Of a DNA stretch of 64,000 nucleotides, positions 1-51,142 are shown piece after piece (positions within the stretch are counted from its first letter, which is position 1; every line of letters starts with the position of its first letter). The translations under genes were made by a program, and so were the position numbers. This stretch comes from Cyanobium sp. (GTDB lineage Bacteria > Cyanobacteriota > Cyanobacteriia > PCC-6307 > Cyanobiaceae). The notes beneath the pieces were generated by a model. It made no database searches and was not told where the DNA came from. It saw only the letters and a list, made by a program, of their open reading frames with translations. The stretch lies in the NCBI GenBank assembly GCA_040399515.1, contig JBBASA010000002.1, forward strand, positions 23,948 through 87,947, read 5' to 3'.

Positions 1-1748
1 CTTTTATTTTAGGGATTAATGCTTTTCACGCTGATGCTTCAGCAGCCTTGATTAAAGACGGGAATATTATTGGAGCAGTTGAAGAAGAGCGGTTTAGAAG
101 AATTAAACATTGGGCTGGATTTCCTAGCCAAGCAATTAAATGGTGTTTGGATGAAGCAAACATTAAACTTGGTGATGTAGATCATATTTCAATTAACACT
201 CAGCCGAACGCTCATAAACTAAGGCGTTTGCTATATGTGATAAAAACGTTGCCGGATCCACGTTTTTTAGCAAAAAGATGGAAGAATAAGCAAGAAAGGA
301 ATGATCTTCAACAACAGTTAACACTTTCGTTTCCAGAAGAAACCATCAATGCACAATTGCATTTTATTGAACACCATCGTTCACATTTGGCATCTGCATT
401 TTACGCATCACCTTTTTTCGAATCCTCATTAATATCTATTGATGGGTTTGGTGATTTCGCAAGTTCTGCATGGGGCTATGGCGGCAATACACATATCAGA
501 GTCGATGGGCATGTGTTTTTCCCTCATTCACTAGGAGCGTTTTACACGGCAATTACCCAGTACCTTGGGTTTCCAAATTATGGAGATGAATATAAGGTCA
601 TGGGACTAGCACCTTACGGAAAACCAGTTTACTTAACGGATATGCGGCAAATCGTAAAGATCAAGAAGAATGGTACTTATGAGCTAAATCTTGACTATTT
701 TCAACACAGTGGCAAAAAGGACCTTGATCACCAATGGAGTTCCGGTACTCCGAGTGTGGGTAGACATTGGAGCGAGGGGATTGAGAAGCTGTTAGGTCCA
801 GCTAGAAAGCCTGATGAGAAACTCGAACAGAAGCATATGGATATAGCAATGTCAACTCAAGCCATGTATGAAGAGGCCTTCTTCGCGCTGCTCAACTCAA
901 TCTACAGGCGGGATAAGTCTAGAAATCTCTGTGTAGCGGGTGGTTGTGGAGCGAACTCTGTCGCAAATGGAAAGATCACAACGCATACAGAGTTTGAGAA
1001 TGTCTATGTCCAGGCAGCTGCTGGGGATGCGGGGGGTGCACTTGGTGCAGCATTAGAGGTTTGGCATCAACTTGGTAATGGGAGATGTGCGCCGATGCTC
1101 AATGCATACCTAGGATACAAATCTTCAACAAGTCAGATAAGAAACCTGCTTGAACTGTCTGATATACGTAGGAAACTTGAAACGGAAAATTGTTCTTTAG
1201 AAGAATTGAGCGATGAATCAATTTTTGAAAGAGTTTCTGACGCTTTAGTTCGAGGAGAGGTTGTTGGTTGGTTTGAAGGAAAAATGGAATGGGGACCACG
1301 AGCTCTTGGTCATCGATCAATTTTGGGAGATCCAAGGAGACACGACATGAAAGACATACTAAACATAAAGATCAAGCGTAGGGAATCATTCCGACCATTC
1401 GCACCTTCGGTTCTTAGAGAGGCAGTTAAGGATTGGTTTATGTGTGATGCTGAAGTGCCCTTTATGATGCAGGTGTTTTCAATCAAGGAAGATAAAAGAG
1501 CATTAATTCCTGCAGTGACTCATGTAGATGGAAGTGGAAGGCTACAGACTGTTTCTAAAGAACAGAATGGACGATATTATGAATTAATTAAATGTTTTTA
1601 TCAAAAGACAGGTGTGCCCATGATTTTGAATACCTCATTCAACGAAAATGAACCAATTGTATGCAAGCCTGAGGAAGCTCTTGACTGTTTCCTACGGACG
1701 AAGATGGATGTGTTAGTAATTGAAAATATATTAATCCGAAGAAAATAA
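1..1748 (+). CDS. carbamoyltransferase (NodU/CmcH family), 5' end truncated by the window edge
   Basis: The ORF track gives 48..1748 from a TTG. The same frame is open back to nt 3 and reads FILGINAFHADASAAL before IKDGNIIGAVEEERFRRIKH, a typical carbamoyltransferase N-terminus. Also seen: VAGGCGANSVANG and the C-terminal ILNTSFNENEPIV. Confidence 0.85.
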   Translation, partial: FILGINAFHADASAALIKDGNIIGAVEEERFRRIKHWAGFPSQAIKWCLDEANIKLGDVDHISINTQPNAHKLRRLLYVIKTLPDPRFLAKRWKNKQERNDLQQQLTLSFPEETINAQLHFIEHHRSHLASAFYASPFFESSLISIDGFGDFASSAWGYGGNTHIRVDGHVFFPHSLGAFYTAITQYLGFPNYGDEYKVMGLAPYGKPVYLTDMRQIVKIKKNGTYELNLDYFQHSGKKDLDHQWSSGTPSVGRHWSEGIEKLLGPARKPDEKLEQKHMDIAMSTQAMYEEAFFALLNSIYRRDKSRNLCVAGGCGANSVANGKITTHTEFENVYVQAAAGDAGGALGAALEVWHQLGNGRCAPMLNAYLGYKSSTSQIRNLLELSDIRRKLETENCSLEELSDESIFERVSDALVRGEVVGWFEGKMEWGPRALGHRSILGDPRRHDMKDILNIKIKRRESFRPFAPSVLREAVKDWFMCDAEVPFMMQVFSIKEDKRALIPAVTHVDGSGRLQTVSKEQNGRYYELIKCFYQKTGVPMILNTSFNENEPIVCKPEEALDCFLRTKMDVLVIENILIRRK

Positions 1749-2539
1749 TGTTTTCCATTCTAGTGGTAGTTCCCACGCTGAACTCATATGATTTTCTCCC
1801 AAGACTTGTAAGATCATTGCAAGATCAGTCTTTCAGTCGTTGGCGGGTATTGTTTATTGATGGAAAAAGTAGTGAGAATCATAAGGATTGGCTTCGTGAT
1901 CAATGCATACAGGACGCCCGCTTTGACTGGGAAGAACAAATATACAGCGATCAAGGGATCTTTGCGGCTATGAACCAAGGATTCAAGCACGCTACAGAAG
2001 AAGAATGGGTATTATTCTGGGGAAGCGATGATTTGGCTACAGACAAGAATGTCTTCAGAAGAGTAGAGCAGAAGCTTATAAGCATGCCTGTACAGCCAGA
2101 CCTATACATATGCAGTGGTAGATACTATTCGACGAATCAGTTGCTGGAGGATGGCTATACATTAAGGATGCAGAGATTCAGTAGGTTTATATCACGAAAG
2201 ACATTTCGTGGGTCCTTGTTTTGGGGATCAACACCACCCCACCAAGCCACCTTTTTTGGGCCAGGAGTAAGAAGACTGCTGAATAGCTATGATGAAGAAT
2301 TTAGGTTAACCGGTGATTTAGATTACTTCTTACGCTTGTCTAGACTAGATGGAATACGGGTCTTTGTCGACAAGACTGTTCTAGTTTTGATGGGCAACTC
2401 AGGAGTAAGTGCAAAGGAAAGTAAAAGAAGAATCAATGAAGTCATATCCTCCTACAAGAAGGCTTTTGGCTCTATGTGGTTTGTCCCATTTCTTTTGAGG
2501 TACTTGCAGCGTTTCTGGAGCATTTTAACTAAGATATGA
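1748..2539 (+). CDS. family 2 glycosyltransferase
   Basis: 263-aa ORF with a GT2-like N-terminus, VVVPTLNSYDFLPRLVRSLQDQS...LFIDGKSSE, and a later GSDD. The start overlaps the upstream stop by 1 nt (TAATG). Confidence 0.7.
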   Translation: MFSILVVVPTLNSYDFLPRLVRSLQDQSFSRWRVLFIDGKSSENHKDWLRDQCIQDARFDWEEQIYSDQGIFAAMNQGFKHATEEEWVLFWGSDDLATDKNVFRRVEQKLISMPVQPDLYICSGRYYSTNQLLEDGYTLRMQRFSRFISRKTFRGSLFWGSTPPHQATFFGPGVRRLLNSYDEEFRLTGDLDYFLRLSRLDGIRVFVDKTVLVLMGNSGVSAKESKRRINEVISSYKKAFGSMWFVPFLLRYLQRFWSILTKI

Positions 2540-3429
2540 CTTACACTATCTTTGGTTGCAACAATCCGAGTGGAGCATATTTTAGAGATCTCGCCTCTAT
2601 ATCATCTGTTGAGATTTGGGGGAGAACAAAACCTATCGATGGAAACTCTAAATATGTCTACTGTGATCTTAAGGCGGAACCAGAATATCCTATACATAAT
2701 ATAAGGGGTGTATTAGTTAGTTTTGCACCAATATGGTTATTGTCTGAGTATCTCTCTAAAGTTTCAGTAAAACAGCCCGAGAGCTTGAAGGATTTGAAAG
2801 GTGTCATTGCAGTTTCATCCTCATCTTATCTGACTAAGCAATTTGCTTTTTCCCACTATGACAAGAATCTAGCAAGATCTTTAAGCGAAGCCCACGCAAC
2901 CATCATACATGTGTGTCAGAGTTTAAAGATACATTGCCAGATACTTGCTCCTACACTGGTATATGGCTTGAAAGATGGATTTAAAGATCGGAATATAAGT
3001 CAGATTATTAAGATTATGCGTTTTTTTCCATTTGTCTTCTTGCCAAAATCAACAGGATTAAGGCAGCCCATCCATGCAAGTCAATTAGCTCAGGTTGCCC
3101 ACAATATGGCAGAAAGAATATTAGAAGGTACTTGGCAGAATGGCAATCCTTTGATATTGACACTTGGTGGAGATGAAATCATGAGTTACTCTCATATGTT
3201 GACAAAGATTCAGAGGTCACTACCAATCAACGATGCTGGTCGAAGATGTCGATTAATTGAGATTCCAGACAGAGTTTTTCTGATTTTTTTTGCTCTATTG
3301 TTACCCATAAATACAAAGTTATTTGAGGCGATAATGAGAATTAACAGTGATTTGGCGGGCTTCTCAAAGGCCAACAATTTGTTAGCCGAAAAACCAAAAG
3401 ATTTTCCAGTACTTCCCCTTTCACTTTGA
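2536..3429 (+). CDS. atypical extended-SDR / NAD-dependent epimerase-dehydratase-like protein (WbpK-like position)
   Basis: 297-aa ORF. Degenerate N-terminal Rossmann loop IFGCNNPSG, APTLVYG and RQPIHASQLAQV resemble extended SDRs. ATGA overlap with the GT2 gene. Confidence 0.45.
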   Translation: MTYTIFGCNNPSGAYFRDLASISSVEIWGRTKPIDGNSKYVYCDLKAEPEYPIHNIRGVLVSFAPIWLLSEYLSKVSVKQPESLKDLKGVIAVSSSSYLTKQFAFSHYDKNLARSLSEAHATIIHVCQSLKIHCQILAPTLVYGLKDGFKDRNISQIIKIMRFFPFVFLPKSTGLRQPIHASQLAQVAHNMAERILEGTWQNGNPLILTLGGDEIMSYSHMLTKIQRSLPINDAGRRCRLIEIPDRVFLIFFALLLPINTKLFEAIMRINSDLAGFSKANNLLAEKPKDFPVLPLSL

Positions 3430-3430
3430 T

Positions 3431-4333
3431 ATGCTTATCAGATTCATGCCTATTACTTTTATTCTTTCAGCAACCATGAGCTGGTTGTTAACTGGCTGTC
3501 TTATTCCCTACTTGAAAAGTGGCTTCATGGATAATCCAAATCATAGAAGTTCTCATATTAGAGCTACTCCAAGAGGAGGAGGTCTTGCTTTTGTCTTAGT
3601 TGGAACACTGTTAAACTTTGTTTATGAAACTGGTCCATCAAGATGGATTCCTGTTGCTTGCCTCCCTTTAGCACTTGTTGGTTTGGTAGATGACTTCAAG
3701 GAACTACCGGCCGCTTTAAGGTACATTGTTCAATTTGTAACTGCGATTGTTCTTGTTGCGCTAGCAGATCGACCTATGTCCATCTGGTTGTCAATGATAT
3801 CTGTCCTACTGATTACGGGGATCATAAATTTTACAAACTTCATGGATGGTCTTGATGGGCTTGTTGCAGGATGTGGGGTGATTTTGATGGCATCAACATC
3901 CTGTTGGGCGATCTCAGGAGCAATCTTTGGCTTTTTAATTTGGAATTGGGCACCAGCCAAAGTTTTTATGGGTGATGTAGGCAGTACATACATTGGGGCT
4001 ATATTTGGAGGAATGCTGATACATACACGTACTGATCACGCTACACTCTCACTACTCCTTATTGGTTTTCCTCTATTTGCAGATGCCTTCGTATGCGTAA
4101 TTCGACGCTTTGTAAATGGAGAAAATATTGTCGAAGCTCATCGAAAGCACCTATTCCAAAGACTGCAACAGGCTGGTTGGTCTCATCAAAAGGTGGCCAG
4201 CCTGTACATAGGTGCGGTAGGAATTCTTCTGTTAAGTTATACTATTGGGGGCTTTTCTGTTCTGGTTGTTTCCATTCTTGGTGAATTCATCATTGCATTC
4301 TACTTGGAAAGATGTGTGGCGACAAAATTTTAA
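3431..4333 (+). CDS. polyprenyl-phosphate HexNAc-1-phosphate transferase (MraY/WecA/WbpL family, GT4 superfamily)
   Basis: 300-aa polytopic membrane ORF with HRSSHIRATPRGGGLAF, VDDFKELP and NFTNFMDGLDGL motifs. Confidence 0.8.
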   Translation: MLIRFMPITFILSATMSWLLTGCLIPYLKSGFMDNPNHRSSHIRATPRGGGLAFVLVGTLLNFVYETGPSRWIPVACLPLALVGLVDDFKELPAALRYIVQFVTAIVLVALADRPMSIWLSMISVLLITGIINFTNFMDGLDGLVAGCGVILMASTSCWAISGAIFGFLIWNWAPAKVFMGDVGSTYIGAIFGGMLIHTRTDHATLSLLLIGFPLFADAFVCVIRRFVNGENIVEAHRKHLFQRLQQAGWSHQKVASLYIGAVGILLLSYTIGGFSVLVVSILGEFIIAFYLERCVATKF

Positions 4334-4398
4334 GCCGCCTAGATCTTATGCTATGATGTATCGATGATTCAAGTTAAAAGAATCAAAAAAGTTTTCTT

Positions 4399-6342
4399 GT
4401 GGAAACATCTCCCAAAGATTCAGTTTCTATGACATTTAGTTGGCTTCTATATATCACTCATCCCCATCTAAACATTGTTGGCAGGAGACTCCTGCTTCTT
4501 GGTCTAGATGGAATTTTGATTGTTATTGCTTTTTATGGTGCTATTGCTTTAAGACTGAATAATCCCGTAGATATCGGCATTTTCCTTACTAAACAAAAAG
4601 CATTGCTTCCAGCAGCAATAGTAAGTGGTTTAGGAGTTTTATGGTTATCAGGCTGGTATAGGGGTTTAACTAGGTACACAGGAAGTTATTCCCTTTATGG
4701 CCTGATTCCAAGAAGTTTCTTAATGGTATTGTTATTACTATTTATTAGTACTCGTTTCTACGCAATTAGCCCTCCTAGATCATACTGGGTTCTATATTGG
4801 CTTTTGTTTACAGGTGGAGCTATCACTATGAGGATAGTCATGCGCGATTTACTTTTGCACCAAATTGATAATAGAAGTTCAATTCTTAATCAAGATGAAT
4901 CGTTACCTAGTAACCCAACTTTGATCTATGGAGCAGGTTCATCTGGATTAACACTACTAATGGCATTGAGGAACGATTCACGATTTAAGGTTATTGGCTA
5001 TCTAGATGATGATCCTGTCCTACATGGACGTACCCTACAGAATCAGGTTATATACTCACCTGATAAGCTTCCAAATCTGATCAATAAATTCTCTATCAGT
5101 CAGGTTCTTTTGGCTATGCCTTCAATCTCAAGACAACGAAAACGCTATCTTGTTGATAATCTAACTCATCATGGAATAACTGTACTTTCTATTCCTTCTC
5201 TCGGGCAATTGGCTAGCGGTTCTAGAACGGTAAGTGATTTAAAGAATGTTGCCATAGAAGATTTACTTGGCAGAGAACCTTCTAATCCACTTATCAACTT
5301 GCTGGAATCAAGTGTAAAAGACAAGGTGGTTCTCGTCACTGGAGCTGGCGGATCGATTGGTAGCGAACTATGTAGACAAATATCTCAACTGGGTGTTAAG
5401 CATCTTGCCATCCTTGAGCTAAATGAATATGCTCTATATTGCATTAGCAAGGAGTTGAGCACGAATCATCCAGAGATACAGCTAACTTGCCTCCTGGGAA
5501 ATGTGTTAGATATGGGATTTGTCTGTAAGATTTGTGGTCAGTTAAACGTCAACACAATTTTCCATGCTGCTGCCTACAAGCACGTTCCGCTTGTCGAGGA
5601 GAATATATGTGCAGGAGTTTCAAATAACATCAGAGGGACTATGTCAGTTATTCAGGCAGCGAAGGACAATAAAATTGAACGCTTGATGTTAATTTCAACA
5701 GACAAAGCGGTTAGACCTACAAACGTTATGGGTGCAAGCAAACGAATTTGTGAGTTACTCATTCAATCTGCAGCAGAAGAGCACACTTCATTTGGTCCGA
5801 TTTTTTCTATGGTAAGGTTTGGAAATGTTCTTGGATCCTCAGGTTCGGTGATCCCTCTCTTCCATGAACAAATCGAGAAAGGTGGTCCAGTTACCGTAAC
5901 CCATCCAGCAGTGACTAGATATTTTATGACTATTCCAGAGGCTGTCCAACTGGTTCTCCAATCTACTGGGATGGCAGTAGGTGGGGATGTTTTTTTACTA
6001 GACATGGGCGAGCCAGTTAGAATTGCTGATCTTGCTAGGCAGATGATTGAGTTGTCAGGTCTACGAGTTAAAGATCAAAAGACTCCTGATGGTGATATAT
6101 CTATTGAATTCACAGGTCTTAGACCCGGGGAAAAGCTTTACGAAGAGCTTCTGATTAGTGCGCATGATCAGCCTACAGATCATCCTCTCATCAGACGAGC
6201 AAGAGAACCAAAAGGAGATAAGATAACTCTAGACTTGATAATTAAAGAGCTGGTCATTGCTCTCAAAAACTGGGATGAGATAAAAACGTATTCGCTTATC
6301 CGCGAACTCGTACCTGAGTTTAACATTAAACAGGAGCCATGA
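4399..6342 (+). CDS. membrane-anchored nucleotide-sugar 4,6-dehydratase/epimerase (CapD/WbpM/PglF family)
   Basis: 647 aa with N-terminal transmembrane segments and two Rossmann regions, IYGAGSSG and VLVTGAGGSIGSEL. Also ISTDKAVRPTNVMGASKR. GTG start at 4399; an alternative ATG lies at 4429. Confidence 0.85.
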   Translation: METSPKDSVSMTFSWLLYITHPHLNIVGRRLLLLGLDGILIVIAFYGAIALRLNNPVDIGIFLTKQKALLPAAIVSGLGVLWLSGWYRGLTRYTGSYSLYGLIPRSFLMVLLLLFISTRFYAISPPRSYWVLYWLLFTGGAITMRIVMRDLLLHQIDNRSSILNQDESLPSNPTLIYGAGSSGLTLLMALRNDSRFKVIGYLDDDPVLHGRTLQNQVIYSPDKLPNLINKFSISQVLLAMPSISRQRKRYLVDNLTHHGITVLSIPSLGQLASGSRTVSDLKNVAIEDLLGREPSNPLINLLESSVKDKVVLVTGAGGSIGSELCRQISQLGVKHLAILELNEYALYCISKELSTNHPEIQLTCLLGNVLDMGFVCKICGQLNVNTIFHAAAYKHVPLVEENICAGVSNNIRGTMSVIQAAKDNKIERLMLISTDKAVRPTNVMGASKRICELLIQSAAEEHTSFGPIFSMVRFGNVLGSSGSVIPLFHEQIEKGGPVTVTHPAVTRYFMTIPEAVQLVLQSTGMAVGGDVFLLDMGEPVRIADLARQMIELSGLRVKDQKTPDGDISIEFTGLRPGEKLYEELLISAHDQPTDHPLIRRAREPKGDKITLDLIIKELVIALKNWDEIKTYSLIRELVPEFNIKQEP

Positions 6343-7274
6343 ATAACCTCACTTTTAGCTTAGCTTTGCTCAAAGACTTTCAACCAAAGTCAATGGTTGC
6401 TTTCTTGGTGAATAAGATACCTCCACCAACATCTCGCAACCTATGGTTAACACTCTCAGCTTTAGTAGCGCTCCAGAGTCTAGTTGTATTTACCAACACC
6501 CAAATAACTGGAAATGCCATAACAGCCCTTATTGTCTGGGGTGGAGCGCTTATCTGTATTGAAGATTTAATTGAGAATATGCGACCTAATCCTTCAAGGA
6601 TCAGCCTTGGATTAGGAGGAGTCTTGATACTATACACTTTGTATAGAACATCACAGGTCAATGGTTCTGACTCCTTCCTTTATTTGCTAGTCCCCATCGC
6701 AGGATTAGGCCTTATCCTTCTAGCGAATCCGATTGCCAATATCTGGAAATATAGAGATGCTCTATTAACTCTGTCTTTATTGCCATTATTCTTGGTTATA
6801 CAAGTCATTGTTGCTACCTACGTAACGAATGACCTTTCAATCATGACCGCAAAATTCGTCATGCTGTGGCTTGGACTTTTGGGAATAGAGCCAACACGTC
6901 TCGAAGGTAATACAGTCTTCATCAATGGAGGTGCTGTACAGGTTATGCATGAATGTAACGGATTGGAGATGATCATGCAAATGTTTATTACCGCTGTGAT
7001 TTTTCTTTTAGCATTTCCACTGCGTTCTAGATTGGGTCGTATAGCAGTTGTTATTTTATCCCCTTTTATTGGATTTATTGTTAACTCATTCAGGATTGCT
7101 TTGCTTGCAGTCTTTACAGGATTGAATTCAGACATTGGTAGGTCAATGTTTGATTTTTTCCATGAACAGGCAGGTTCACTAATCTTTTCAGGGATAGCTG
7201 TTTTCGTTCTTGGGTATCTTTACCTTACAATCCTCAACCGTGAGCTCCCACCCATATGGGATGAAGAAACATGA
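6339..7274 (+). CDS. exosortase, cyanoexosortase-A-like
   Basis: 311-aa polytopic ORF. The three exosortase signature regions are visible: AVQVMHECNGLEMIMQ (Cys), GFIVNSFRIALLAV (Arg) and FFHEQAGSLIFSG (His). ATGA overlap with the capD-like gene. Confidence 0.8.
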   Translation: MNNLTFSLALLKDFQPKSMVAFLVNKIPPPTSRNLWLTLSALVALQSLVVFTNTQITGNAITALIVWGGALICIEDLIENMRPNPSRISLGLGGVLILYTLYRTSQVNGSDSFLYLLVPIAGLGLILLANPIANIWKYRDALLTLSLLPLFLVIQVIVATYVTNDLSIMTAKFVMLWLGLLGIEPTRLEGNTVFINGGAVQVMHECNGLEMIMQMFITAVIFLLAFPLRSRLGRIAVVILSPFIGFIVNSFRIALLAVFTGLNSDIGRSMFDFFHEQAGSLIFSGIAVFVLGYLYLTILNRELPPIWDEET

Positions 7275-7930
7275 ATCAAGACTGCAAGCGACCCTACCTC
7301 ATTTTAATAGTCTTGGCTCTTTTGGCCTCCGGTTACTCTTATTTTAAAACTGGGATAAGCTCACCTGTATATCCATCCATATTGACCTCGAGACTTTTAG
7401 CATTGGATTCGATAGAACCTCCTATCTCCACTTCATCTAAGCTGTTAGATGAGGATACTTCAGATCGAATGTTGTCACCCATGCATCAATATACGTTCCG
7501 TGACGGTTCTAAATTATTAGCTGTAATGGTTAGGATCCGGAAGAGAGATGACTTTAAGATTGAGACCTATGGATTGCTTACGAAAGGAATCGAACCAATT
7601 TATATAAAGTCTCCATCCTTTAACAATGCAGTTCCATACTCCATGTTAGGTGTAATTAATGGGAAGGAAGCACTTCAGACATGTGTCATTCCTGGAACAA
7701 CTAAGTTAGATCAAGTTAATGTCCAACTATTCCCGCTGCTTTCCCAAGCCGAACAACTTGCTGGAAGTAGTCAGTCTTTAAGTTCTAAGTTTTTGGGTAC
7801 TGATGATAGATCTGATTACTCTTGTCTTGTACTTACCTACCATCCAAAATCAGTTAAAGGAGCAACCAAGGCTTGGACTTCCATCATTGAAAATGCACAA
7901 CTTGCTTTATCCAGTAGAAATGATTTATAA
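7271..7930 (+). CDS. exosortase-associated EpsI-like protein (cyanoexosortase system-associated)
   Basis: 219 aa with a single N-terminal transmembrane segment, YLILIVLALLASGYSYF. ATGA overlap with the exosortase gene. The assignment rests mainly on position and size. Confidence 0.5.
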   Translation: MNQDCKRPYLILIVLALLASGYSYFKTGISSPVYPSILTSRLLALDSIEPPISTSSKLLDEDTSDRMLSPMHQYTFRDGSKLLAVMVRIRKRDDFKIETYGLLTKGIEPIYIKSPSFNNAVPYSMLGVINGKEALQTCVIPGTTKLDQVNVQLFPLLSQAEQLAGSSQSLSSKFLGTDDRSDYSCLVLTYHPKSVKGATKAWTSIIENAQLALSSRNDL

Positions 7931-7971
7931 TTTCTTTATTGATTTATCAAAGTCTACATCATCTGCTTTCA

Positions 7972-8517
7972 ATGTTTTCCAATTTTTTTAAGAGAAAAAA
8001 ACCTACGGCTTCTGTAGAACGGTCTGTATTTCAACCAAGAGATTCCAACGTATCAGATCCCCCTTTAATATACAGTTGGATTATAACTAATAAACTTGCT
8101 ATTGGTCCAATGCCAAAAACGAGTTCACATTGGAGACAACTAGATTATGATGGATTTCGAAATCGATTTAGTTGCTGCTTCCCTAATGAACATATCTTTG
8201 CCCCCATACCAGATCATTGGAATAGCAGAGAAGTATCATTGCCAGATCATAGAGAACAGACCCATCTTGAAAAAGCAACACTTGTGTTAGCTTTAAAAGA
8301 AGCCGAGGAGATGATCTTAATGAGTTCGGAACCTGTATATCTTCACTGCCTTGCTGGACAAGAACGATCTGCCTTGATAGCAATCGGTTTAGTTAGCATA
8401 CTGGAAAACAAAGATTTATTTGATAGTATAGCTTTTGTTAGACAATGCCACAAGAAAGCCAAACCGTTATATGGTCAACTTGATCTGTTAGAGCAAGTCC
8501 TAAGAGATAGTTTTTAG
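7972..8517 (+). CDS. Cys-based protein phosphatase (dual-specificity / PTP-like, CX5R)
   Basis: Active-site loop VYLHCLAGQERSALIA fits HCxxGxxRS. The ORF track starts at TTG 7939; the first ATG is at 7972. Confidence 0.7.
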   Translation: MFSNFFKRKKPTASVERSVFQPRDSNVSDPPLIYSWIITNKLAIGPMPKTSSHWRQLDYDGFRNRFSCCFPNEHIFAPIPDHWNSREVSLPDHREQTHLEKATLVLALKEAEEMILMSSEPVYLHCLAGQERSALIAIGLVSILENKDLFDSIAFVRQCHKKAKPLYGQLDLLEQVLRDSF

Positions 8518-8521
8518 TGAT

Positions 8522-11047
8522 CTAGGATTGGTTCGTTTTGTCAGGATTTACCTTATCAGCTACTGTACTAGAGCTATCCATATCTGCTGATTCTTCTTGG
8601 AGATATCTATTTCCAAAATATGAATCCTTTGCTTTCTTGAAGTATCCATTTAAGCCTTGGTTCTTATAGCTATCGGAATAGGAGTAACCATAGTGGTAGT
8701 AATAGCCATATTCATATCCGTAATCATTTAGATTTGTGGGGAACGAAACCTGATTGCAGATCATTCCTAACACATCTACACCAGTAGCTTTGATTCGACG
8801 AACAGCTTGGGGCGCAATTCGTCGTGAAACCTTACCAAGGCCTACTAAGAAGAGAATTCCATCTAACTTTTCCCCCAAAAGAATCGGATCAGCAAGCATC
8901 AAACATGGAGGTGTATCAAAGAGAACAATGTCATAATCCGTTGAATTTCTGATCGATTCAATAACATCTTGACAACGTGAAGAGTTTAGAAGTTTTGCTG
9001 GGTCAGGTGGTTTAGGACCTGAGGAGATAAAGTCGAAGTTTTCTTGCACTCTTACGATCAGCGATTGTAAATCAGATCGAGAATCTGTTAGGAGTGTGGA
9101 GAAACCATCTTCCCCAGATGCAATGCCAAGATATTTTGCCTGAGTTGGCAATCTCATATCCGCGTCAACAACAAGAACTTTTAGGCCTAGGTCAGCAAGA
9201 GTACGTGCAAAGATTGATATTGATGTGGATTTTCCTTCACCTTGAGTAGATGAAGTTACACCTACTAATTTAATATCTCTGTCTGCACGTAAAAGTCTAA
9301 ATGTAGTAAAAAGGCTTCGGAGGGATTCTTTAATCGCAAATCTCTCGCTTGCAGTCATTTTGGAAATACTTTTGCTAATATTCAGGCCTGGCTCCAGCGG
9401 CAAATATGGAATAAGACCAAGAACTGGGAGTTGGAGTTCTTTCTCAGCATCAGAGGGTGTATGAAAAACATTATCTGTTCTGTCTCTTATATATGCGGCA
9501 GCAGCTCCTCCGAGTAAACCAAACAAAAGTGCTCTGATAAGATTATCCTTAACATTCGGAGAAACTGGGTCAGGTGAAAAATATGGTGGAGATATAACTT
9601 GCCATGGAGTTACGAACCTTGCCTTCTCTAACTTAAAATTCTCCATAGCTGAGACATAAGAAGCATAATTTGCCCTTGCAGATTCCAATCTTTGTGAAAT
9701 GTCTGTAAATTCTTTTAACTTGTCTGGACTATTTCTGAAATTTTGATTGAGTAAGAGTATTTGTCTGTTCAACTCATCCTGCTGTTTAACATTCTGAAAC
9801 AATTTCTCTCGGAGAACGTCCAGTTGCTGGTTTTTTACAACTGGAGCTAACGCATCTCTTTTAGCAAGGATCGACTTAACAATAGGTGAGTCGTCACGAT
9901 AAATAGCTCTTGCTCTCGCCAGCTCGATTTCGAATTTCTGGTATTCGCTTGATGGACTCGAGGTGCCAACGGTTTCCTCTAAGACACGATCGGCGGAATC
10001 ACCGGCAGCTGGAATAAGAGTTCCTTGGCGACCAAGTTGTTGGATAGGCGTAGGTGCACCAGAAGGAGTGTATGAAAATTTGCCAGACTGCACGGTTTTC
10101 ATTTGGTTTTCAATTCTCGACTGATCGACCTGTAACGCTCCAACCTGCGCAACAAGAGAATCTCTCTGCGCAATAATTGCTGCAGCATTTTCAGTCGGAT
10201 CAACAACTAGATTTTTTTCACGGAAAGCCCGAAGCTTGTTCTCATATCTGTTGACATTCGAGAGGATTGTGGGGGCTTGGGAATCCAGCCACTTCATGCC
10301 TGCATCGATACTTTGCTGGCGTTGTACCAATGAAAACTGGACATAATCTTTGGCCAGATTTTCAAGAATTAAACGACCCTGCTCTGGATTTCTCCAGTTG
10401 AGGGTGACGTTCATAACTGCTGTAGTCCCTTCTGCCTGATCAATTCGTAACTTTTGAATGATATCCCTTTTGTTCAAACCTAATCTGTCAGCCGTAGGAC
10501 CAACTACAAGTGGGCTTGTCAGCAATGAGCGCAAGGCAGGTATATTACTTTTAACCTGTGCTCTAGCTAGGGCTTCTATTTTGCCTTCACCACCGATAAC
10601 TTGGTTTTGCTCTGCTGGTACAGCTGACTCAATTTGAAGCTTAAAATCGCCGGCAAAATCAGGATTGAACTTACGCTCACGAAATGTGTTAAGCGCCCAC
10701 AAGCTTGATATTAGCGCAGTAGTAAAAAGAAAGATTCCTTGACGTCTCTTGAGTGTTCGAACGAGGCTTCCAAAGCCTCCATCACCGGAATCACCAGAAC
10801 CTAAAGGCGAAAAATTGGGATCGCCCTGACTGCCGGAGTTTTGCGCCAAGCCAGGAGGAAGAGGAGGAAGGACTGGACCACTCCCGGTGGGCTGGACAGA
10901 AGATCCCGATGTCGTCACAGAGACAGTGCACTTGACTGGTAATAATAGATGAGCCGGGGAATCAGTCAAGTCAAACCGATCAGTTTGGAATCCATCACCC
11001 AAACAGTGCTGAGCATCGAGTTGTGCGTTTAAGGTAGATAACCTCAT
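8522..11047 (-). CDS. wzc: polysaccharide co-polymerase with C-terminal tyrosine autokinase (Wzc/GumC type)
   Basis: 841 aa. Walker A TSSTQGEGKST, Walker A' VLVVDADMRLP, Walker B YDIVLFDTPP. C-terminal Tyr cluster YGYEYGYYYHYGYSYSDSY. A long coiled periplasmic region lies between two transmembrane segments. Confidence 0.85.
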   Translation of the reverse strand: MRLSTLNAQLDAQHCLGDGFQTDRFDLTDSPAHLLLPVKCTVSVTTSGSSVQPTGSGPVLPPLPPGLAQNSGSQGDPNFSPLGSGDSGDGGFGSLVRTLKRRQGIFLFTTALISSLWALNTFRERKFNPDFAGDFKLQIESAVPAEQNQVIGGEGKIEALARAQVKSNIPALRSLLTSPLVVGPTADRLGLNKRDIIQKLRIDQAEGTTAVMNVTLNWRNPEQGRLILENLAKDYVQFSLVQRQQSIDAGMKWLDSQAPTILSNVNRYENKLRAFREKNLVVDPTENAAAIIAQRDSLVAQVGALQVDQSRIENQMKTVQSGKFSYTPSGAPTPIQQLGRQGTLIPAAGDSADRVLEETVGTSSPSSEYQKFEIELARARAIYRDDSPIVKSILAKRDALAPVVKNQQLDVLREKLFQNVKQQDELNRQILLLNQNFRNSPDKLKEFTDISQRLESARANYASYVSAMENFKLEKARFVTPWQVISPPYFSPDPVSPNVKDNLIRALLFGLLGGAAAAYIRDRTDNVFHTPSDAEKELQLPVLGLIPYLPLEPGLNISKSISKMTASERFAIKESLRSLFTTFRLLRADRDIKLVGVTSSTQGEGKSTSISIFARTLADLGLKVLVVDADMRLPTQAKYLGIASGEDGFSTLLTDSRSDLQSLIVRVQENFDFISSGPKPPDPAKLLNSSRCQDVIESIRNSTDYDIVLFDTPPCLMLADPILLGEKLDGILFLVGLGKVSRRIAPQAVRRIKATGVDVLGMICNQVSFPTNLNDYGYEYGYYYHYGYSYSDSYKNQGLNGYFKKAKDSYFGNRYLQEESADMDSSSTVADKVNPDKTNQS

Positions 11048-11064
11048 GCACGGGTCCCAAGCTG

Positions 11065-12177
11065 ATGAGATTGGTCTGGAGCCAGGGCTTTAAGCTCAGT
11101 TTTAATTCATTTGCCGTAGGTTCTTGCGCGATTGCCTGTATTGCGTCTGGTTTGCCGCTTTCTTCGCGACCTCTGACCAATGATGTCGTGGCAAACTTAT
11201 CGATGGGCTCGACCAATTCTGAACCTGTTCCCTCGATCACAGAAACATATTCCGATCTCTACACCCTAGGTCCAGGAGATACGTTAACGCTAACGTTTTT
11301 AGATCCAGAATTAAAGAGTGTGGGTGGTGGTATAACTGTTCTTCCAGATGGAACTGCTGTTCTTCCGTTGGTAGGTTCTGCTCAACTATCTGGGTTAACC
11401 ATAGGTCAAGCCACCCGTTGGTTAACATCTCTCTACCAAAAGCAAGTTGTTCGGCCAGAACTTCTTCTTAGTTTACGAACTGCACGCCCAACAAAAGTAA
11501 CTGTCATCGGTGAGGTTCTCAAACCTGGTCTTTTGGAATTGGGCGGCATACCCCGTGTTGTCAGTGCCATTCAGAAAGCAGGTGGTATTTCCCCCAATGC
11601 AGATATACGCAGAGTTTTGCTTCGTCGTGTAGTTGGTCAAAGCGGAGCTCAAAAGCAAACCTTTATTGATTTATCACAAGTTTTTTTGTTGGGGAACCAA
11701 TTTCAAAATCCAGTTTTATTTGATGGAGATACTTTAATTATTGGCAGAGCTTCTGAACCAATTCCTGACGAAGTGATTCGAATCGGACGTACAAACTTAG
11801 CCCCTACTTCTATAAATATTACTATACTTGGCGAAGTCAAATCAGCTGGAACTGTCTCCTTGCCCGCAAACACACCTCTGATTGAAGCAATTTTTAGGGC
11901 TGGTGGTCTTAAAAAATGGCGAGCCAATAAAAACCATATTGAGTTAATTCGTTTTAATGATAACGGTACAACTACACGTCAGGTTTTTGCTTACAAGGAT
12001 GATCTCAACGTTTCTAATGGCTTTAATCCTCCACTAAGAGATCGTGACACTATCATTGTCAACCGTACTTTCTATGGAGAGGCTCTTGATGCACTTAATG
12101 ATATTGCAGTCCCGATCGGGATTATCAACAATCTTGGCGGATTTGGTGGAGGTTGGGGCAACTGGAACAATCGCTAA
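11065..12177 (+). CDS. wza: outer-membrane polysaccharide export protein (Wza/OPX family; Poly_export plus SLBB-like repeats)
   Basis: 370 aa with signal/lipobox-like FAVGSCAIACIASG. YTLGPGDTLTLTF is the Poly_export signature. Repeated GEVxxPG...AGG units are present (VIGEVLKPGL...AIQKAGG; ILGEVKSAGT...AIFRAGG). Confidence 0.8.
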   Translation: MRLVWSQGFKLSFNSFAVGSCAIACIASGLPLSSRPLTNDVVANLSMGSTNSEPVPSITETYSDLYTLGPGDTLTLTFLDPELKSVGGGITVLPDGTAVLPLVGSAQLSGLTIGQATRWLTSLYQKQVVRPELLLSLRTARPTKVTVIGEVLKPGLLELGGIPRVVSAIQKAGGISPNADIRRVLLRRVVGQSGAQKQTFIDLSQVFLLGNQFQNPVLFDGDTLIIGRASEPIPDEVIRIGRTNLAPTSINITILGEVKSAGTVSLPANTPLIEAIFRAGGLKKWRANKNHIELIRFNDNGTTTRQVFAYKDDLNVSNGFNPPLRDRDTIIVNRTFYGEALDALNDIAVPIGIINNLGGFGGGWGNWNNR

Positions 12178-12201
12178 TCTTTTCCATCATCTTCTAAAAC
12201 C

Positions 12202-13422
12202 ATGACTCACAAAGTTCCTAATCCAAATCAAAAGGTCAACAAGAAAGCCATCGCTTGGGCTCTTTTTAGCCAATCCATATGGTTACCAGTTTTATTTACG
12301 GATACACAAGATCAGATTGCAAGTAATAGTAGCGATTATGATTTTTCAGGCGTCGCTGCTAACATTCCTCATCAGAACTTACCAAAACAAATTTCCCTTG
12401 CCAAATCTTTAGATCACTCCACTGTTGGCTTACTTGCACAATCATCAAAGATTGTTGAAACCAATGGTGTGATTTTGAATGCAGCTCTACCCAAGGAAAG
12501 AAGCATTCATAGCAAGCTCGAAAGCATCAATTCGCCTGTATCTATTTCCTCACCAGTTGCTTTCAGTACATCTCTACTTCCACCATCAAGTCCTGTTGCC
12601 CTCAGTCTCAATTCCAGAAATTTTGAGCCTAAATCCCTAGCTCCTGCTGAACGTGCGAATGAATTGCCACCTTCTGATTTGCTACGTAGGTTGTATTCAC
12701 GCTCCGATCTACTTGGTGGAAACCTTACTTTAGGAGACCTGAATGAGCCTCTAATGCCTCCCTTAGCTCGTGCTGAAAGGGCTCAATCGACCCGAACAGG
12801 TGATCCTCTTTCAACTATTCCACAAATGTGGAGAGAGCCCATGAGAAAAGCATTAAGGTCATTATCTGATAATTTAAAGCCTCTATCGGGCCCTGTTTCA
12901 AGTAGATCCACAGGTGTAATTACTGTTGAGCAGGCTCGTGTGATTCACGTTCCCTCATCAAGGGTGAAGCGTTTCTCAGAAGTTCCCCTAGCTCTTCAAT
13001 CTGATGGCACAGTCGATATTCTGAATAGTCCAGATGACCCTGAAGTTGTAGAGGAGATCAAAACTTGGTCCTCTAAGCAACAATTACCAGCAAAAGGGCG
13101 AATGGCTCCAGCAGTGGTTCACCTTCATCCTTTACCTAAGCAAGAACAGGTTCCTGCCTCGGAGAAGGTGACAAAATCAGATTTAAAATTGCCTCAAGAG
13201 ATTCAAACAACAATTCAGCCAGTACAGAAGCTCGCTCCAGAGCTGCAAGAAGCCTCCGTGCGAGATGCTCTTCCACCAACACCTTCGGCACCCACACCCC
13301 CAACTCCACCACCCATCACTGAGTCGCAAACAAGCGAACTGCTACCCCCTGAATCGCAAACAAGAATCGCAGAAGTTCACTCTGACTTATCCACTGCTGA
13401 GAGTAAGGGAGAGATTCAATGA
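12202..13422 (+). CDS. hypothetical membrane-anchored Ser/Pro-rich protein
   Basis: 406-aa ORF with one N-terminal hydrophobic segment, AIAWALFSQSIWLPVLF, and a Pro-rich tail, PPTPSAPTPPTPPPI. It sits between wza and the beta-barrel gene and shares an ATGA overlap with the latter. Confidence 0.5.
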   Translation: MTHKVPNPNQKVNKKAIAWALFSQSIWLPVLFTDTQDQIASNSSDYDFSGVAANIPHQNLPKQISLAKSLDHSTVGLLAQSSKIVETNGVILNAALPKERSIHSKLESINSPVSISSPVAFSTSLLPPSSPVALSLNSRNFEPKSLAPAERANELPPSDLLRRLYSRSDLLGGNLTLGDLNEPLMPPLARAERAQSTRTGDPLSTIPQMWREPMRKALRSLSDNLKPLSGPVSSRSTGVITVEQARVIHVPSSRVKRFSEVPLALQSDGTVDILNSPDDPEVVEEIKTWSSKQQLPAKGRMAPAVVHLHPLPKQEQVPASEKVTKSDLKLPQEIQTTIQPVQKLAPELQEASVRDALPPTPSAPTPPTPPPITESQTSELLPPESQTRIAEVHSDLSTAESKGEIQ

Positions 13423-14120
13423 AGTTTCGCACTTTTTGTGGATCATCTTTAGTCTTCGCGTTGTTTTGCGCTATCGCACCTACTGCCTACTCCCAAGTCC
13501 AGGTTTTACCAAGCAAGCCTGTGTGGCAGCAAGCCCCTGCGGAATCATTGAATCAATCGATTCAATGGACTGCCGTAGAGAATTTTGGGGACGTACCAAC
13601 CCAATTTATGCCTGTTCCAGCAAAAACAGATCCTAGAGAGTTGGCGGCAAAACCAAGAGTAGAGGGACCCTATAAATCAAGAGGCATCTACGGTTTCGGA
13701 GGTGGAGTTAGACCTGGTACCTACACGGGTGATCCAACAAACGCCCTGTTTACAGCTAGAGTTGCTTACAAACTTGACCAAGATTTTTCAATCTCTCTTC
13801 GCCCGAGCATCCTAATTGGAAACGATGACAACAATAATGACAATAACAACAATAATGATAACAATAATGACAGCGGTTGGGAGGCCAGGATTCCATTAAC
13901 GATCGACCTTTTCAACCGCAGTTTTATCACACCCTTCTTTGGCGGCGGAATTGCAACGAATGTCGACGGCTTAGGCTACACCGATGGCATGCTAACAGCT
14001 GGCGTAGATCTTAACATTACAAAATGGCTTACAGTCGGATCTCACGTTAATTATATATATCAAACCAATATAGACGATACGGACTGGGAGGTTCTCAGCA
14101 TGATTTACCTCAGATTTTAA
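13419..14120 (+). CDS. small outer-membrane beta-barrel-like protein with an Asn/Asp low-complexity loop
   Basis: 233 aa. Signal peptide SSLVFALFCAIAPTAYS-Q, alternating aromatic/polar strands, and a C-terminal ...IYLRF ending in Phe, typical of BAM substrates. Confidence 0.55.
   Translation: MKFRTFCGSSLVFALFCAIAPTAYSQVQVLPSKPVWQQAPAESLNQSIQWTAVENFGDVPTQFMPVPAKTDPRELAAKPRVEGPYKSRGIYGFGGGVRPGTYTGDPTNALFTARVAYKLDQDFSISLRPSILIGNDDNNNDNNNNNDNNNDSGWEARIPLTIDLFNRSFITPFFGGGIATNVDGLGYTDGMLTAGVDLNITKWLTVGSHVNYIYQTNIDDTDWEVLSMIYLRF
13821..13871 (+). repeat. AAY/GAY codon repeat encoding NDDNNNDNNNNNDNNND
   Basis: Read directly: aac gat gac aac aat aat gac aat aac aac aat aat gat aac aat aat gac. Confidence 0.9.
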
Positions 14121-14126
14121 GGTAGT

Positions 14127-14648
14127 TCACAGAACCCGATAGGCTACTTGATTCACCGTTTCTTTAATTTCGCATTTCTGCTCATCGTCATATCCCCATC
14201 TTTCGAGAAAGTTTTTATCTTCGCCTCTTTCGTTCAGTCCTTCAACAAGGGTTTCAAGTCTACTTTTGACCTGAAGCGGTTCAAGCAGCCTTAAAAGATC
14301 AAGACATCTTGAGCGAACCCGCAAGGATCCATCCAACAGCGCTTGGTCTTGATTGCGTTTGTGATGAACCCCCATAGCAGTACTCATCGCAAGATTACGG
14401 ACGGTTAGATCAACAACCTCTTCACCAGCCAATCGCAACTGGCAGATGAGGGGCTCAGGCAGACGATCCATCAGGGGGGAGTCGCTGGTGAGGGAGGCCA
14501 CAAAGAATCCTCTTGCCCCGTCTCTCTGACGTACCAGCTCCCCGACGGTATCCGCCAGGACATCGTCGCTCAGCTCTTCCTGATCCCAGCGACGAATCCA
14601 CTCCGTGCTCTGGGCGATGGCTTCTTGAAAAGACAGTGGCTTGGACAT
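14127..14648 (-). CDS. conserved hypothetical protein, compositionally mosaic
   Basis: The ORF is 14127..14669; the internal ATG at 14648 (MSKPLSF...) leaves room for the divergent era promoter. The 5' half is about 60% GC and the 3' half about 35-47% GC. Confidence 0.55.
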   Translation of the reverse strand: MSKPLSFQEAIAQSTEWIRRWDQEELSDDVLADTVGELVRQRDGARGFFVASLTSDSPLMDRLPEPLICQLRLAGEEVVDLTVRNLAMSTAMGVHHKRNQDQALLDGSLRVRSRCLDLLRLLEPLQVKSRLETLVEGLNERGEDKNFLERWGYDDEQKCEIKETVNQVAYRVL

Positions 14649-14711
14649 GAAACGTTTGGGACCAAGCACCCATTTTGGTCAAGGGAGGACATTGACTGCC
14701 AGATTTGGTGG

Positions 14712-15668: not shown

Positions 15669-15715
15669 GGGTGGCGCCAAACCCTTAAGTTCAAGGAACC
15701 GAGAGCAAAAGCGTC

Positions 15716-16237: not shown

Positions 16238-16244
16238 TCCCCCC

Positions 16245-16949: not shown

Positions 16950-16975
16950 CCGCCATCTGAAAACCTCCAACTCCC

Positions 16976-17461: not shown

Positions 17462-17529
17462 ACGAGCGACCCTCTGCTCCTCCTCCTTCCTAAGCTGATT
17501 TCGATGAACGAAGCAAAACTCGGTGGATC

Positions 17530-18635: not shown

Positions 18636-18661
18636 GAATAGAACGGCAGCCCCCCCCTGAA

Positions 18662-19684: not shown

Positions 19685-19708
19685 TGAGAGATTGAAGGTC
19701 TTAGAAAT

Positions 19709-31772: not shown

Positions 31773-31844
<72 letters not shown>

Positions 31845-47054: not shown

Positions 47055-47110
47055 GGAGGGGGGGGCTCGGGCTGGACGGGATGGGATTCGGGGGAAAGGG
47101 TGCGATGCCG

Positions 47111-51140: not shown

Positions 51141-51142
51141 CC

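Follow-up and report, generated by a model that had tools for sequence, protein, structure and literature searches.

Does a surface-polysaccharide gene cluster of conspicuously low guanine-plus-cytosine (GC) content betray a recent arrival in its chromosome, or is it an old resident whose composition has a local cause? The question is raised by a 64,000-nucleotide stretch of a Cyanobium sp. genome (GenBank assembly GCA_040399515.1, contig JBBASA010000002.1, positions 23,948 to 87,947; hereafter the window), which opens with such a cluster. When a surface-polysaccharide cluster is low in GC, this is routinely read as proof that it was acquired horizontally, and a sequence-only reading of the window had likewise proposed an acquired island, expected to vary between strains. 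Overall, we consider it probable that the cluster is instead an old resident polysaccharide locus, vertically inherited, lying in a low-GC, fast-evolving domain of ~37 kb that includes housekeeping genes, and that it is not a recent import. Throughout, the island is window positions 1-14,300 and the domain is the whole low-GC block, that is, the window part and its left extension; L-numbers denote comparison loci retrieved from public genomes and metagenome contigs, the comparison data being mostly metagenomic.

The compositional contrast is real. By binned GC count, all 14 of the 1-kb bins over window positions 1-14,000 lie at 37.8-47.2% GC, none of the other 50 bins of the window falls below 51.4%, and the flank is mostly at 60-70%; the initial hand estimate of about 35-47% for the island and 60-65% for the flank was thus borne out, at 38-47% and 60-70%. 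GC at third codon positions (GC3) is 26-43% in island genes and 66-75% in flank genes (pooled, 34 vs 71). At 200-bp resolution GC climbs from 0.40 to 0.60 between ~14,200 and 14,500, with the switch at ~14,300-14,400. The idea that such composition is common in the replicon finds no support in the 50 kb of flank, where the other dips reach 51-58% GC. These milder dips, at window positions 50,244-53,473, 46,191-48,151 and 24,577-25,626, none of them near the island's 38-47%, correspond to ctaCDE (cytochrome c oxidase), a pair of ABC-2 transporter genes and a 349-aa open reading frame (ORF) without assignment.

The block also extends well beyond the window. In L001 and L002, which are 99.9-100% identical to the window, it continues 8.25 kb leftward with eight more sugar genes at 37-42% GC; L163 (97.7% identity) adds a further 5.7 kb, and L179 (97.3-98.6% identical in the overlaps, within the island diversity of the species) reaches the left end of the domain, these four same-species contigs together extending it ~22.5 kb beyond the window edge. 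The order at the left end of L179 is psbC, an Npun_F0494-like gene, a 329-aa gene, sigma70, pdhA, ARC6/Ftn2, ffh, rpsP and a gmd-like gene, followed by an AsnB-like 512-aa gene and then glycosyltransferases; psbC has 50% GC, all genes after it have GC3 of 31-35%, and in the relative L176 GC is regained, at 59-60%, in psbD, the gene before psbC. Window position 1 corresponds to L179 position 23,729, which gives, for this uncultured freshwater picocyanobacterium, a domain of ~36.8 kb that starts where psbC ends and stops midway through the gene adjacent to era. About 8.5 kb of this is housekeeping genes, ~28-29 kb is the polysaccharide locus, from the gmd-like gene to the gene for a small outer-membrane protein, and window positions 1-14,300 are the right-hand 40%. 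The sequence-only reading, which placed an island of more than 14 kb at 1-14,450, was therefore right about the low GC, but the border lies at ~14,300, inside the gene at 14127-14648, and the block measures ~37 kb. Nor is that block 'dedicated' to polysaccharide export, since its left extension holds sigma70, pdhA, ftn2/arc6, ffh and rpsP.

The same reading had found no integrase, transposase or tRNA at the block, and this holds. Neither the Pfam and NCBIfam results nor the gene lists for the ~37 kb contain an integrase or transposase (direct repeats were not searched for), and the sole tRNA gene in the window, tRNA-Val(CAC) at 31,773-31,844, is distant from both domain borders. The strand composition of the domain is uneven: over L163 positions 1-8,000 the coding strand is strongly purine-loaded (GC skew +0.17 to +0.37, AT skew +0.05 to +0.2), the opposite-strand kinase gene in the window is nearly free of skew, and the genes at 12-14 kb have negative skew. 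No simple replication or transcription explanation fits this pattern.

What relatives carry at the same site bears most directly on the age of the locus. The best matches of the window's Era protein are to Cyanobium, Vulcanococcus and Synechococcus, at 63-70% (best GTDB species genome, 70%); together with the cpeS/psbC context they fit the picocyanobacterial chromosome that had been proposed, and flank gene order is kept in all three genera. Several Cyanobium genomes have at the same site the genes for PglF, exosortase, phosphatase, kinase (minus strand), outer-membrane polysaccharide export (OPX) protein and outer-membrane protein, at 62-73% GC. Scanning metagenomes with the kinase gave 80 lake contigs, and in those long enough the order thiE, era, OPX, kinase, exosortase, PglF, WecA, family-2 glycosyltransferase, carbamoyltransferase is kept throughout. 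The same genes in the same order thus lie between rpsP and era in dozens of freshwater picocyanobacterial lineages, and the era-anchored synteny comparison that the sequence-only reading had recommended shows relatives with the same cluster at the locus and, where it is lacking, phoH-like and BI-1-like genes.

Within the species, and between it and its nearer relatives, descent is equally clear. An identical Era protein is encoded on 21 public contigs, and the eight of these that were retrieved, a small and metagenomic sample, all carry the same island genes, at 95.8-99.6% identity beside a flank at 99.2-100%, so the expected variation between strains was not seen. Their gene content is the same throughout the 10 kb compared, and the left half likewise matches among L002, L163, L179 and L180. 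At greater distance, flank proteins are 93-97% and island proteins 77-92% identical between the window and L083, and 71-84% and 46-78% between the window and L151; both L083 and L151 carry the same low-GC cluster. The concatenated distance matrices of export module and flank correlate at Pearson r = 0.95, a value reached in none of 2000 permutations, neighbour-joining trees of the two recover the same six clades, and discordance between island and flank trees was seen for lineage L012 only. Vertical inheritance of the locus reaches back to the ancestor shared by the window, L083 and L151, or further, and all sampled members of the species carry it. The outcome that the sequence-only reading had itself named as refuting its view is thus the one observed: in close relatives the locus holds these same genes, and they are just as low in GC. 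The low GC is not supported here as the mark of an island acquired at any recent time.

Two side observations concern the sampling. L010 (JACJSZ010000010.1, 'Microcystis elabens FACHB-917') and L015 (CALRQT020000018.1, 'Pseudanabaena sp. UWO311') have typical picocyanobacterial synteny here and probably represent contamination or mis-binning; in L015, GC is also low (47-56%) over a separate stretch directly after trmD. Look-ups based on ffh, with the low-GC ffh as query, returned only low-GC lineages, and the left half of the cluster was surveyed in those; a P0326 look-up for the left border of a high-GC lineage led to an unrelated, transposase-rich context.

The low GC is moreover an old condition. 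In the window, L083 and L151 the module has GC3 of 0.33-0.34 beside a flank at 0.69-0.74, and divergence at synonymous sites (dS) between the window and L151 is saturated, yet both lineages hold GC3 near 0.33. By codon-position regression, with constants reportedly those of Lawrence and Ochman from 1997, island GC at first codon positions (GC1, 49.9) and GC3 (34.2) both imply a genome of ~38% GC, and their agreement means that even amino-acid composition is equilibrated. Flank genes (14,712-20,973) are off this equilibrium, GC1 implying a genome of ~70% GC and GC3 one of ~61%, which suggests that the core genome of the window lineage is itself losing GC. Polymorphisms polarised with L083 as outgroup, imperfectly so across 14% divergence, comprise 113 changes from G/C to A/T (S>W) and 137 in reverse (W>S) in the island, for an expected equilibrium (GC*) of 0.47 vs a present 0.42, and 35 S>W vs 5 W>S in the flank, small counts that give GC* of 0.19 vs a present 0.63.

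A graded series across the radiation leads to the same view. Module GC3 ranges from 0.93 down to 0.32 over 26 lineages and is below flank GC3 in every one of them (difference 0.02-0.40; Spearman 0.92). The lower the genome GC, the larger the deficit, and the trough widens outward from the export module as flank GC3 drops: at flank GC3 of 0.84-0.90 the depression is confined to the export module, the sugar genes next to it are intermediate in L113 and L132, and in the window clade the whole cluster stands at ~0.33. Known freshwater picocyanobacterial genomes span 51.8-72.5% GC (PMC11316352), and therefore no plausible low-GC donor is known. The low GC has been kept up locally over a long time and is not a foreign signature still awaiting amelioration.

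The domain is set apart by divergence as well as by composition. Between the window and L083, dS (NG86, with no adjustment for differing base composition) is 0.44-0.67 in the island and 0.10-0.18 in the flank, and divergence at non-synonymous sites (dN) is ~3 times higher in the island; dN/dS is 0.06-0.23 in the island and 0.08-0.33 in the flank, and these low and similar ratios place the island genes under purifying selection. The island is more diverged than the flank in 45 of 45 pairs, by a ratio of 1.2-9.6 over 36 within-species pairs and of 2.9 to L083, and the domain as a whole diverges ~3-5 times faster than the flank. In the left half, compared between L179 and L176, dS is uniform at 0.6-1.0 across core and sugar genes. 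At the right border, identity to L083 jumps from 0.83 to 0.94 at 14,300, where GC passes from 0.41 through 0.50 to 0.63, so that the GC and divergence borders coincide within 150 bp, inside the UCP020893 gene next to era. GC3 by thirds of that gene is 68/51/36 in the window and 66/54/31 in L083.

Core genes share in this condition. The backbone sigma70-pdhA-ARC6-ffh-rpsP...UCP020893-era has high GC in cluster-less freshwater and marine relatives and occurs at low GC in Prochlorococcus. The left-hand core genes have GC3 of 32-35% in the window species, and are low in GC also in L176-178, L181, L183, L174 and L172/173, the last being the L151 lineage (100% identical overlap).

How might such a state be kept? 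We believe, with moderate confidence, that a force raising the GC of the core genome acts more weakly on the domain. New mutations in the window genome would be strongly AT-biased, the core would be held at ~63% GC by selection or by recombination-linked biased gene conversion, and the domain, where that hold is weaker, would lie nearer mutational equilibrium. Divergent polysaccharide alleles that are kept for long, and that recombine poorly with the rest of the population, would experience only a weak GC-raising force, and neighbouring core genes would have been drawn into the domain as the GC of the lineage's genome fell. We base this account on the AT-biased mutations, on the equilibrated island and the scaling of its deficit with genome GC, on sharp borders that match the step in divergence, and on the excess divergence at every depth examined. 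More tentatively, we put forward as possible that the low-GC 'island' arose endogenously, or was long kept in place, as a self-maintaining, fast-evolving domain around the polysaccharide locus, with the trough spreading outward from the export module.

At the same time, several of our data weigh against a resident locus under a weakened GC-raising force. By a back-of-envelope calculation, a simple fixation-bias model alone gives no 4-5-fold difference in dS, and the dS estimates themselves take no account of differing base composition. The ffh of the domain is 59.5-62% identical to every relative, the relatives being at least 70.5% identical to one another; pdhA is likewise an outlier, on a long branch, and era is not, and an outlier ffh of this kind is what import of the segment from a low-GC, deep-branching relative would leave. 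Four-gamete incompatibility is high in both parts, 54% in the island and 44% in the flank, but it speaks neither for nor against any of this, the metagenome contigs being possibly consensus mosaics. Borders that are sharp and intragenic fit an old homologous replacement, as does the replacement by the cluster of the phoH-like and BI-1-like genes of marine relatives.

The deep history of the rpsP-era interval adds two further points of this kind. In cluster-less picocyanobacteria, phoH-like and BI-1-like genes lie between rpsP and the UCP020893 gene, an occupancy found in marine Synechococcus, in some freshwater lineages and in Prochlorococcus (loci L003-L006 and L013-L017, and for Prochlorococcus L019-L053); neither gene occurs in any of the cluster-bearing loci retrieved or anywhere in the 64-kb window. 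In a tree of six flank proteins rooted with Prochlorococcus, the freshwater lineages form a clade with 93.5% bootstrap support, and L012, which bears the cluster, is sister to L016, which is in the phoH state, in 99.7% of replicates, so that the cluster-bearing lineages are never monophyletic as a whole. Set L012 aside, and they are monophyletic in only 52% of replicates, the first of the two adverse points; the second is that L012 and L016 reveal an interval able to change its occupant. L012 (NZ_JAGQBB010000002.1) has the most divergent module, without exosortase and at 47-60% GC, and L016 (NZ_NQKW01000004.1) has the phoH/BI-1 genes; the contrast between them is likely an independent replacement event. 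Occupants of the interval have thus been exchanged two or more times, with no mobility genes involved. Ancient replacement through flank homology, with the window's own cluster inherited vertically since, is plausible, and to that extent the flank-homology acquisition favoured by the sequence-only reading survives: the occupant does change over the long term, but the acquisition is not recent for the cluster of the window.

Among the rival explanations, the one that fares best is that the whole segment from psbC to the neighbour of era, core genes included, was replaced as a cassette, supplied by a deep-branching picocyanobacterial relative of low GC, in the lineage ancestral to the window, L083 and L151, and has been vertical since. 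This would account for two borders lying in conserved genes (psbC, with 99-100% protein identity, and UCP020893), the right one sharp; for domain ffh and pdhA genes more divergent than the entire Synechococcus/Prochlorococcus spread; for codon positions that all fit a genome of ~38% GC; and for an interval whose occupant has changed at least twice. We nonetheless think it unlikely. No amelioration is seen despite saturated dS within the clade, the excess divergence is found at all depths (within the species, against L083 and against L151) and not on one stem branch, in other clades the GC trough is narrower and graded, with its centre on the export module, and the known freshwater picocyanobacteria include none near 38% GC (the range in PMC11316352 is 51.8-72.5%). 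An ancient cassette would explain the origin of the low GC, and its maintenance would need something else.

Improbable, in our estimate, is a locally raised, AT-biased mutation rate over the domain, set for instance by its transcription, replication or repair context, which would lower GC while raising dS and dN and would call for no particular population-genetic regime. The concerted rise of dN and dS, ~3-4.5-fold with similar dN/dS, agrees with it, as do the uniform dS over left-half core and polysaccharide genes and the strong coding-strand excess of G over C in the left part. The excess of polymorphism, however, is not AT-biased, W>S changes per site being up ~12-fold and S>W changes ~3-fold; the skew is inconsistent across genes and strands, and a higher rate alone leaves equilibrium GC unshifted.

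That flank recombination fairly recently brought in a low-GC island from a foreign donor of low GC, variable between strains, we regard as very unlikely indeed. A GC contrast of 25 points, a sharp right border, the lack of integrase and tRNA, and a locus that is an insertion relative to the marine backbone are in keeping with recent capture, but they are set against a locus carried by all eight same-species contigs and a cluster that recurs at the same low GC in L083 (95% flank identity) and L151, a module tree that tracks the flank tree, island divergence that is never below flank divergence, codon positions and polymorphisms that look equilibrated, and core genes that are low in GC too. A shared low-GC donor pool was also considered and rejected, no pair having an island divergence smaller than its flank divergence. 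An assembly artefact joining contigs of a low-GC and a high-GC organism is suggested by the junction inside a conserved gene and by comparison data that are mostly metagenomic, but is hardly credible, given the same junction in at least 10 independent assemblies, which differ in sample and assembler, and also in diverged lineages, and a left-side GC that climbs via psbC (50%) to psbD (59-60%) within single contigs.

The domain can also be set beside islands of known kinds. It has the atypical base composition of a classical horizontally acquired genomic island, and lacks the mobility hallmarks, patchy presence and discordant phylogeny. It is closer to the low-GC metagenomic or replacement flexible islands for O-chain and cell-surface polysaccharides that many aquatic bacteria have, among them those of Salinibacter ruber (MGI1/2; PMC2800850) and of the Pelagibacterales O-chain (PMC11898729), being a surface-polysaccharide cluster at a fixed site, with GC far below that of the genome, higher population diversity than its flanks and no need of classical mobility genes. 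Flexible islands of this type differ in gene set within a species, whereas gene content here is the same in sampled conspecifics and largely kept across deep lineages; the phylogeny tracks the flank, GC is graded across the whole radiation, pseudogene or insertion-sequence decay is absent, and essential core genes lie inside the domain. The feature as first described is thus ordinary in kind, and behind it stands a moderately unusual compositional domain.

The part of the domain that lies in the window, together with its right-hand neighbours, comprises the following features (aa, amino acids; SDR, short-chain dehydrogenase/reductase; HexNAc, N-acetylhexosamine; BY, bacterial tyrosine).

1-1748, plus strand: carbamoyltransferase of the NodU/CmcH type (Pfam Carbam_trans_N 8.7e-56, Carbam_trans_C 2.6e-71).
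1748-2539, plus strand: family-2 glycosyltransferase (PF00535, 4.1e-15).
2536-3429, plus strand: 297-aa protein, possibly an SDR-fold sugar-nucleotide reductase or epimerase (a weak assignment).
3431-4333, plus strand: WecA/MraY-family polyprenyl-phosphate HexNAc-1-phosphate transferase, predicted to prime synthesis (PF00953, 6.1e-24, 85.2 bits, cut-off 27).
4399-6342, plus strand: membrane-anchored PglF/WbpM-like UDP-HexNAc 4,6-dehydratase (PF02719, 3.8e-115).
6339-7274, plus strand: exosortase (PF09721, 88.9 bits, cut-off 25.7; TIGR04178, 48.8, cut-off 23).
7271-7930, plus strand: 219-aa exosortase partner of a narrow, lineage-restricted family, its gene overlapping the exosortase gene by 4 nt.
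7939-8517, plus strand: putative Cys-based (CX5R) protein phosphatase with the motif HCLAGQERS (HCxxGxxRS).
8522-11047, minus strand: Wzc-like polysaccharide co-polymerase and BY tyrosine autokinase (TIGR01007, 121.9 bits, cut-off 108.05).
11065-12177, plus strand: OPX (Wza-family) export protein, periplasmic/outer-membrane, with Poly_export and two SLBB domains.
12202-13422, plus strand: 406-aa Pro/Ser-rich protein with no function assigned, between the OPX and outer-membrane protein genes.
13419-14120, plus strand: 233-aa putative outer-membrane beta-barrel with a signal peptide and a terminal Phe.
14127-14648, minus strand: conserved backbone gene of the UCP020893 family (PF27721 annotation), divergent from era.
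14712-15668, plus strand: era, first gene of the high-GC right flank and synteny anchor (NF000908 Era, 334.6 bits).

The twelve ORFs before 14,120, on one strand or the other, had been read as serving one polysaccharide theme. The theme is right, with the carbamoyltransferase, family-2 glycosyltransferase, WecA/MraY-family (GT4) transferase, PglF/WbpM-like dehydratase, exosortase, BY-kinase and OPX protein all above curated cut-offs; for the phosphatase, the beta-barrel and the 297-aa and 406-aa proteins the evidence is weak or absent. Overlaps of 1-4 nt, as first noticed, occur at five gene junctions. The carbamoyltransferase gene has lost its 5' end at the window edge (the full gene, of 583 aa in L001, begins 4 nt before the window), and its product probably O-carbamoylates a sugar. 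The 297-aa protein has zero Pfam or NCBIfam matches and in a PDB search only a weak one, to an NAD-dependent epimerase/dehydratase at E = 0.0015; the position of its gene before the WecA-like gene is kept in many lineages. The priming transferase has seven transmembrane-like segments and matches TIGR02380 wecA at 1.1e-17, under the cut-off. The dehydratase has an N-terminal CoA_binding_3 domain with transmembrane segments and is 63-69% identical to its orthologue in syntenic relatives. In L174/L175, positions 14,076-18,521, the carbamoyltransferase is missing and a family-1 glycosyltransferase (285 aa) and a WecA-like protein (182 aa) are truncated, which suggests decay of cluster genes in that low-GC lineage.

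The putative phosphatase matches DSPc at E = 1.4e-3 (18.9 bits vs a cut-off of 33.5) and dual-specificity phosphatase structures at E = 0.05-0.1, its PDB matches as a whole extending to E = 0.9. Its true start is probably 7972, the gene being called as 181 aa in public contigs, and in relatives it always adjoins the kinase gene; its product may be the counterpart of the BY-kinase. In the kinase itself, Walker A (GEGKST, residues 600-606), Walker A' (VVDADMR) and Walker B (LFDTPP) motifs can be read, as can the C-terminal tyrosine cluster YGYEYGYYYHYGYSYSDSY. Its N-terminal 40-odd residues are doubtful, since relatives align from residue ~43 onward only and same-species indels fall there. Those indels, of up to ~143 bp at window positions 10,938-11,080, affect the 5' end of the kinase gene and the divergent kinase-OPX intergenic region, so the promoter region common to the kinase and OPX genes varies within the species; gene callers give kinase lengths of 797-841 aa. 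The OPX protein scores 49.2 bits for PF02563 (cut-off 28), 64.8 for PF10531 and 55.4 for PF22461, and matches Wza structures at E = 1e-14 over residues 60-230 only, the last 140 residues being without alignment.

The remaining genes are more variable. The 406-aa protein has no family match, relatives were detected in the closest lineage, L083, only (79% identity), and its dN/dS of 0.23 is the maximum of the cluster; it is a fast-evolving, lineage-specific protein. The same-species contig L169 has merely a 160-aa call at the position of this ORF. The 233-aa protein matches OMP_b-brl at E = 8.7e-4 (19.9 bits vs a cut-off of 28.7), and its gene is kept in position in many relatives at 25-60% identity. 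An Asn/Asp-rich, low-complexity insert in it, NDDNNNDNNNNNDNNNDS, encoded at window positions 13,821-13,874, is 6 nt longer in L083. The UCP020893 gene adjoins era in every relative, whether the cluster is present or not, and the Era protein starts at MDLPP.

Judged by its gene content, the island encodes a predicted machine of the Wzc/Wza type for synthesis and export of a surface polysaccharide, and the locus is best described as a putative exopolysaccharide (EPS) or capsule locus with an embedded exosortase, both kinds being already known. The PglF/WbpM-like dehydratase, probably with the SDR-like 297-aa enzyme, would make a 6-deoxy-HexNAc nucleotide sugar; the WecA-family enzyme would prime sugar on undecaprenyl phosphate, and some ten glycosyltransferases, at least eight of them in the left extension, would assemble the repeat unit for decoration by the carbamoyltransferase. 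No recognisable Wzx or Wzy was found in the window or left extension, and the only candidate flippase or polymerase is a multi-transmembrane protein of the left extension (469 aa, ~9 transmembrane segments, no Pfam match). The BY-kinase and CX5R-phosphatase pair may control polymerisation and export, and the OPX protein, perhaps with the small outer-membrane protein, would carry the polymer out. In gene order alone, window positions 2536-6342 recall the wbpK-wbpL-wbpM module of Pseudomonas aeruginosa, in which an SDR-like protein, a WecA-family transferase and a large membrane-bound 4,6-dehydratase initiate O-antigen, the SDR assignment of the 297-aa protein being weak.

The exosortase, with seven transmembrane-like segments, is nearest in subtype to cyanoexosortase A (TIGR03763 CrtA, 115.8 bits, below the cut-off of 150). 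Its 219-aa partner belongs to a family of which only 14 cluster representatives match among 1.84 billion proteins; the partner itself has nothing in Pfam, NCBIfam or single-sequence or profile PDB searches, and only one of 12 members of the family matches TIGR04153, at E = 0.003, the window's own protein not at all. It may be distantly related to the cyanoexosortase-A-associated protein. PEP-CTERM-like substrates were sought by motif in every ORF of 60 aa or more in the 64-kb window, with only two spurious antisense ORFs as the outcome, and the substrates are therefore presumably encoded elsewhere; the divergent cyanoexosortase-A-like pair would probably process sorting-signal proteins from other parts of the genome. 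The locus thus resembles known exosortase/PEP-CTERM EPS loci in having an exosortase-family gene beside Wzc/Wza-type genes, and resembles cyanoexosortase A in its best subtype match and in the weak contact of the partner family with TIGR04153, while departing from the latter in its sub-cut-off score, in the lack of a PEP-CTERM-like ORF in 64 kb and in so tiny a partner family.

Comparison with the Wzx/Wzy-dependent Wza-Wzb-Wzc systems of Escherichia coli group-1 capsule and colanic acid shows the same mixture. Shared are an OPX protein with Poly_export and SLBB domains, a BY-kinase co-polymerase (PCP-2a) with Walker A, A' and B motifs and a C-terminal Tyr cluster, a putative Cys-based phosphatase gene beside the kinase gene, a WecA-family priming enzyme and many glycosyltransferases. 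The putative phosphatase here is, however, weakly similar to dual-specificity or classical protein tyrosine phosphatases and not to the low-molecular-weight type of Wzb, no Wzx or Wzy is recognisable, and an exosortase pair is embedded in the cluster. A putative barrel gene soon after the OPX gene recalls the class-3 OPX and beta-barrel translocon of Myxococcus xanthus, but the partner barrels described there are 16-18-stranded, PgaA-like and ~400 aa long (PMC9601211, PMC9603273), and the 233-aa protein here is too short for a 16-18-stranded barrel. With 370 aa, the OPX protein has a length closer to the median of class 1 (378 aa) than to that of class 3 (256 aa); class 3 is marked by an OPX protein without the Wza_C outer-membrane helix, and the alignment to Wza here covers residues 60-230.

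Regardless of which force has kept the domain as it is, low GC here is no proof of horizontal acquisition, and the case is a caution for composition-based island callers. The same cluster occupies the same site across the freshwater picocyanobacterial radiation at GC3 from 0.93 to 0.32 and co-diverges with its flanks, and in the low-GC lineages ffh and rpsP have been dragged into the composition of the cluster. The locus is thus a tractable natural system in which foreign origin can be weighed against a local regime, be it one of recombination, of biased gene conversion, of mutation rate or of balancing selection exerted by phages or grazers. If the endogenous reading is true, the series of 26 lineages would be a natural time series of the formation of an island without horizontal transfer. 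In this context, what looked like a foreign cassette is the principal locus for cell-surface polysaccharide and exosortase in picocyanobacteria abundant in lakes, and a likely determinant of their susceptibility to phages and grazers.

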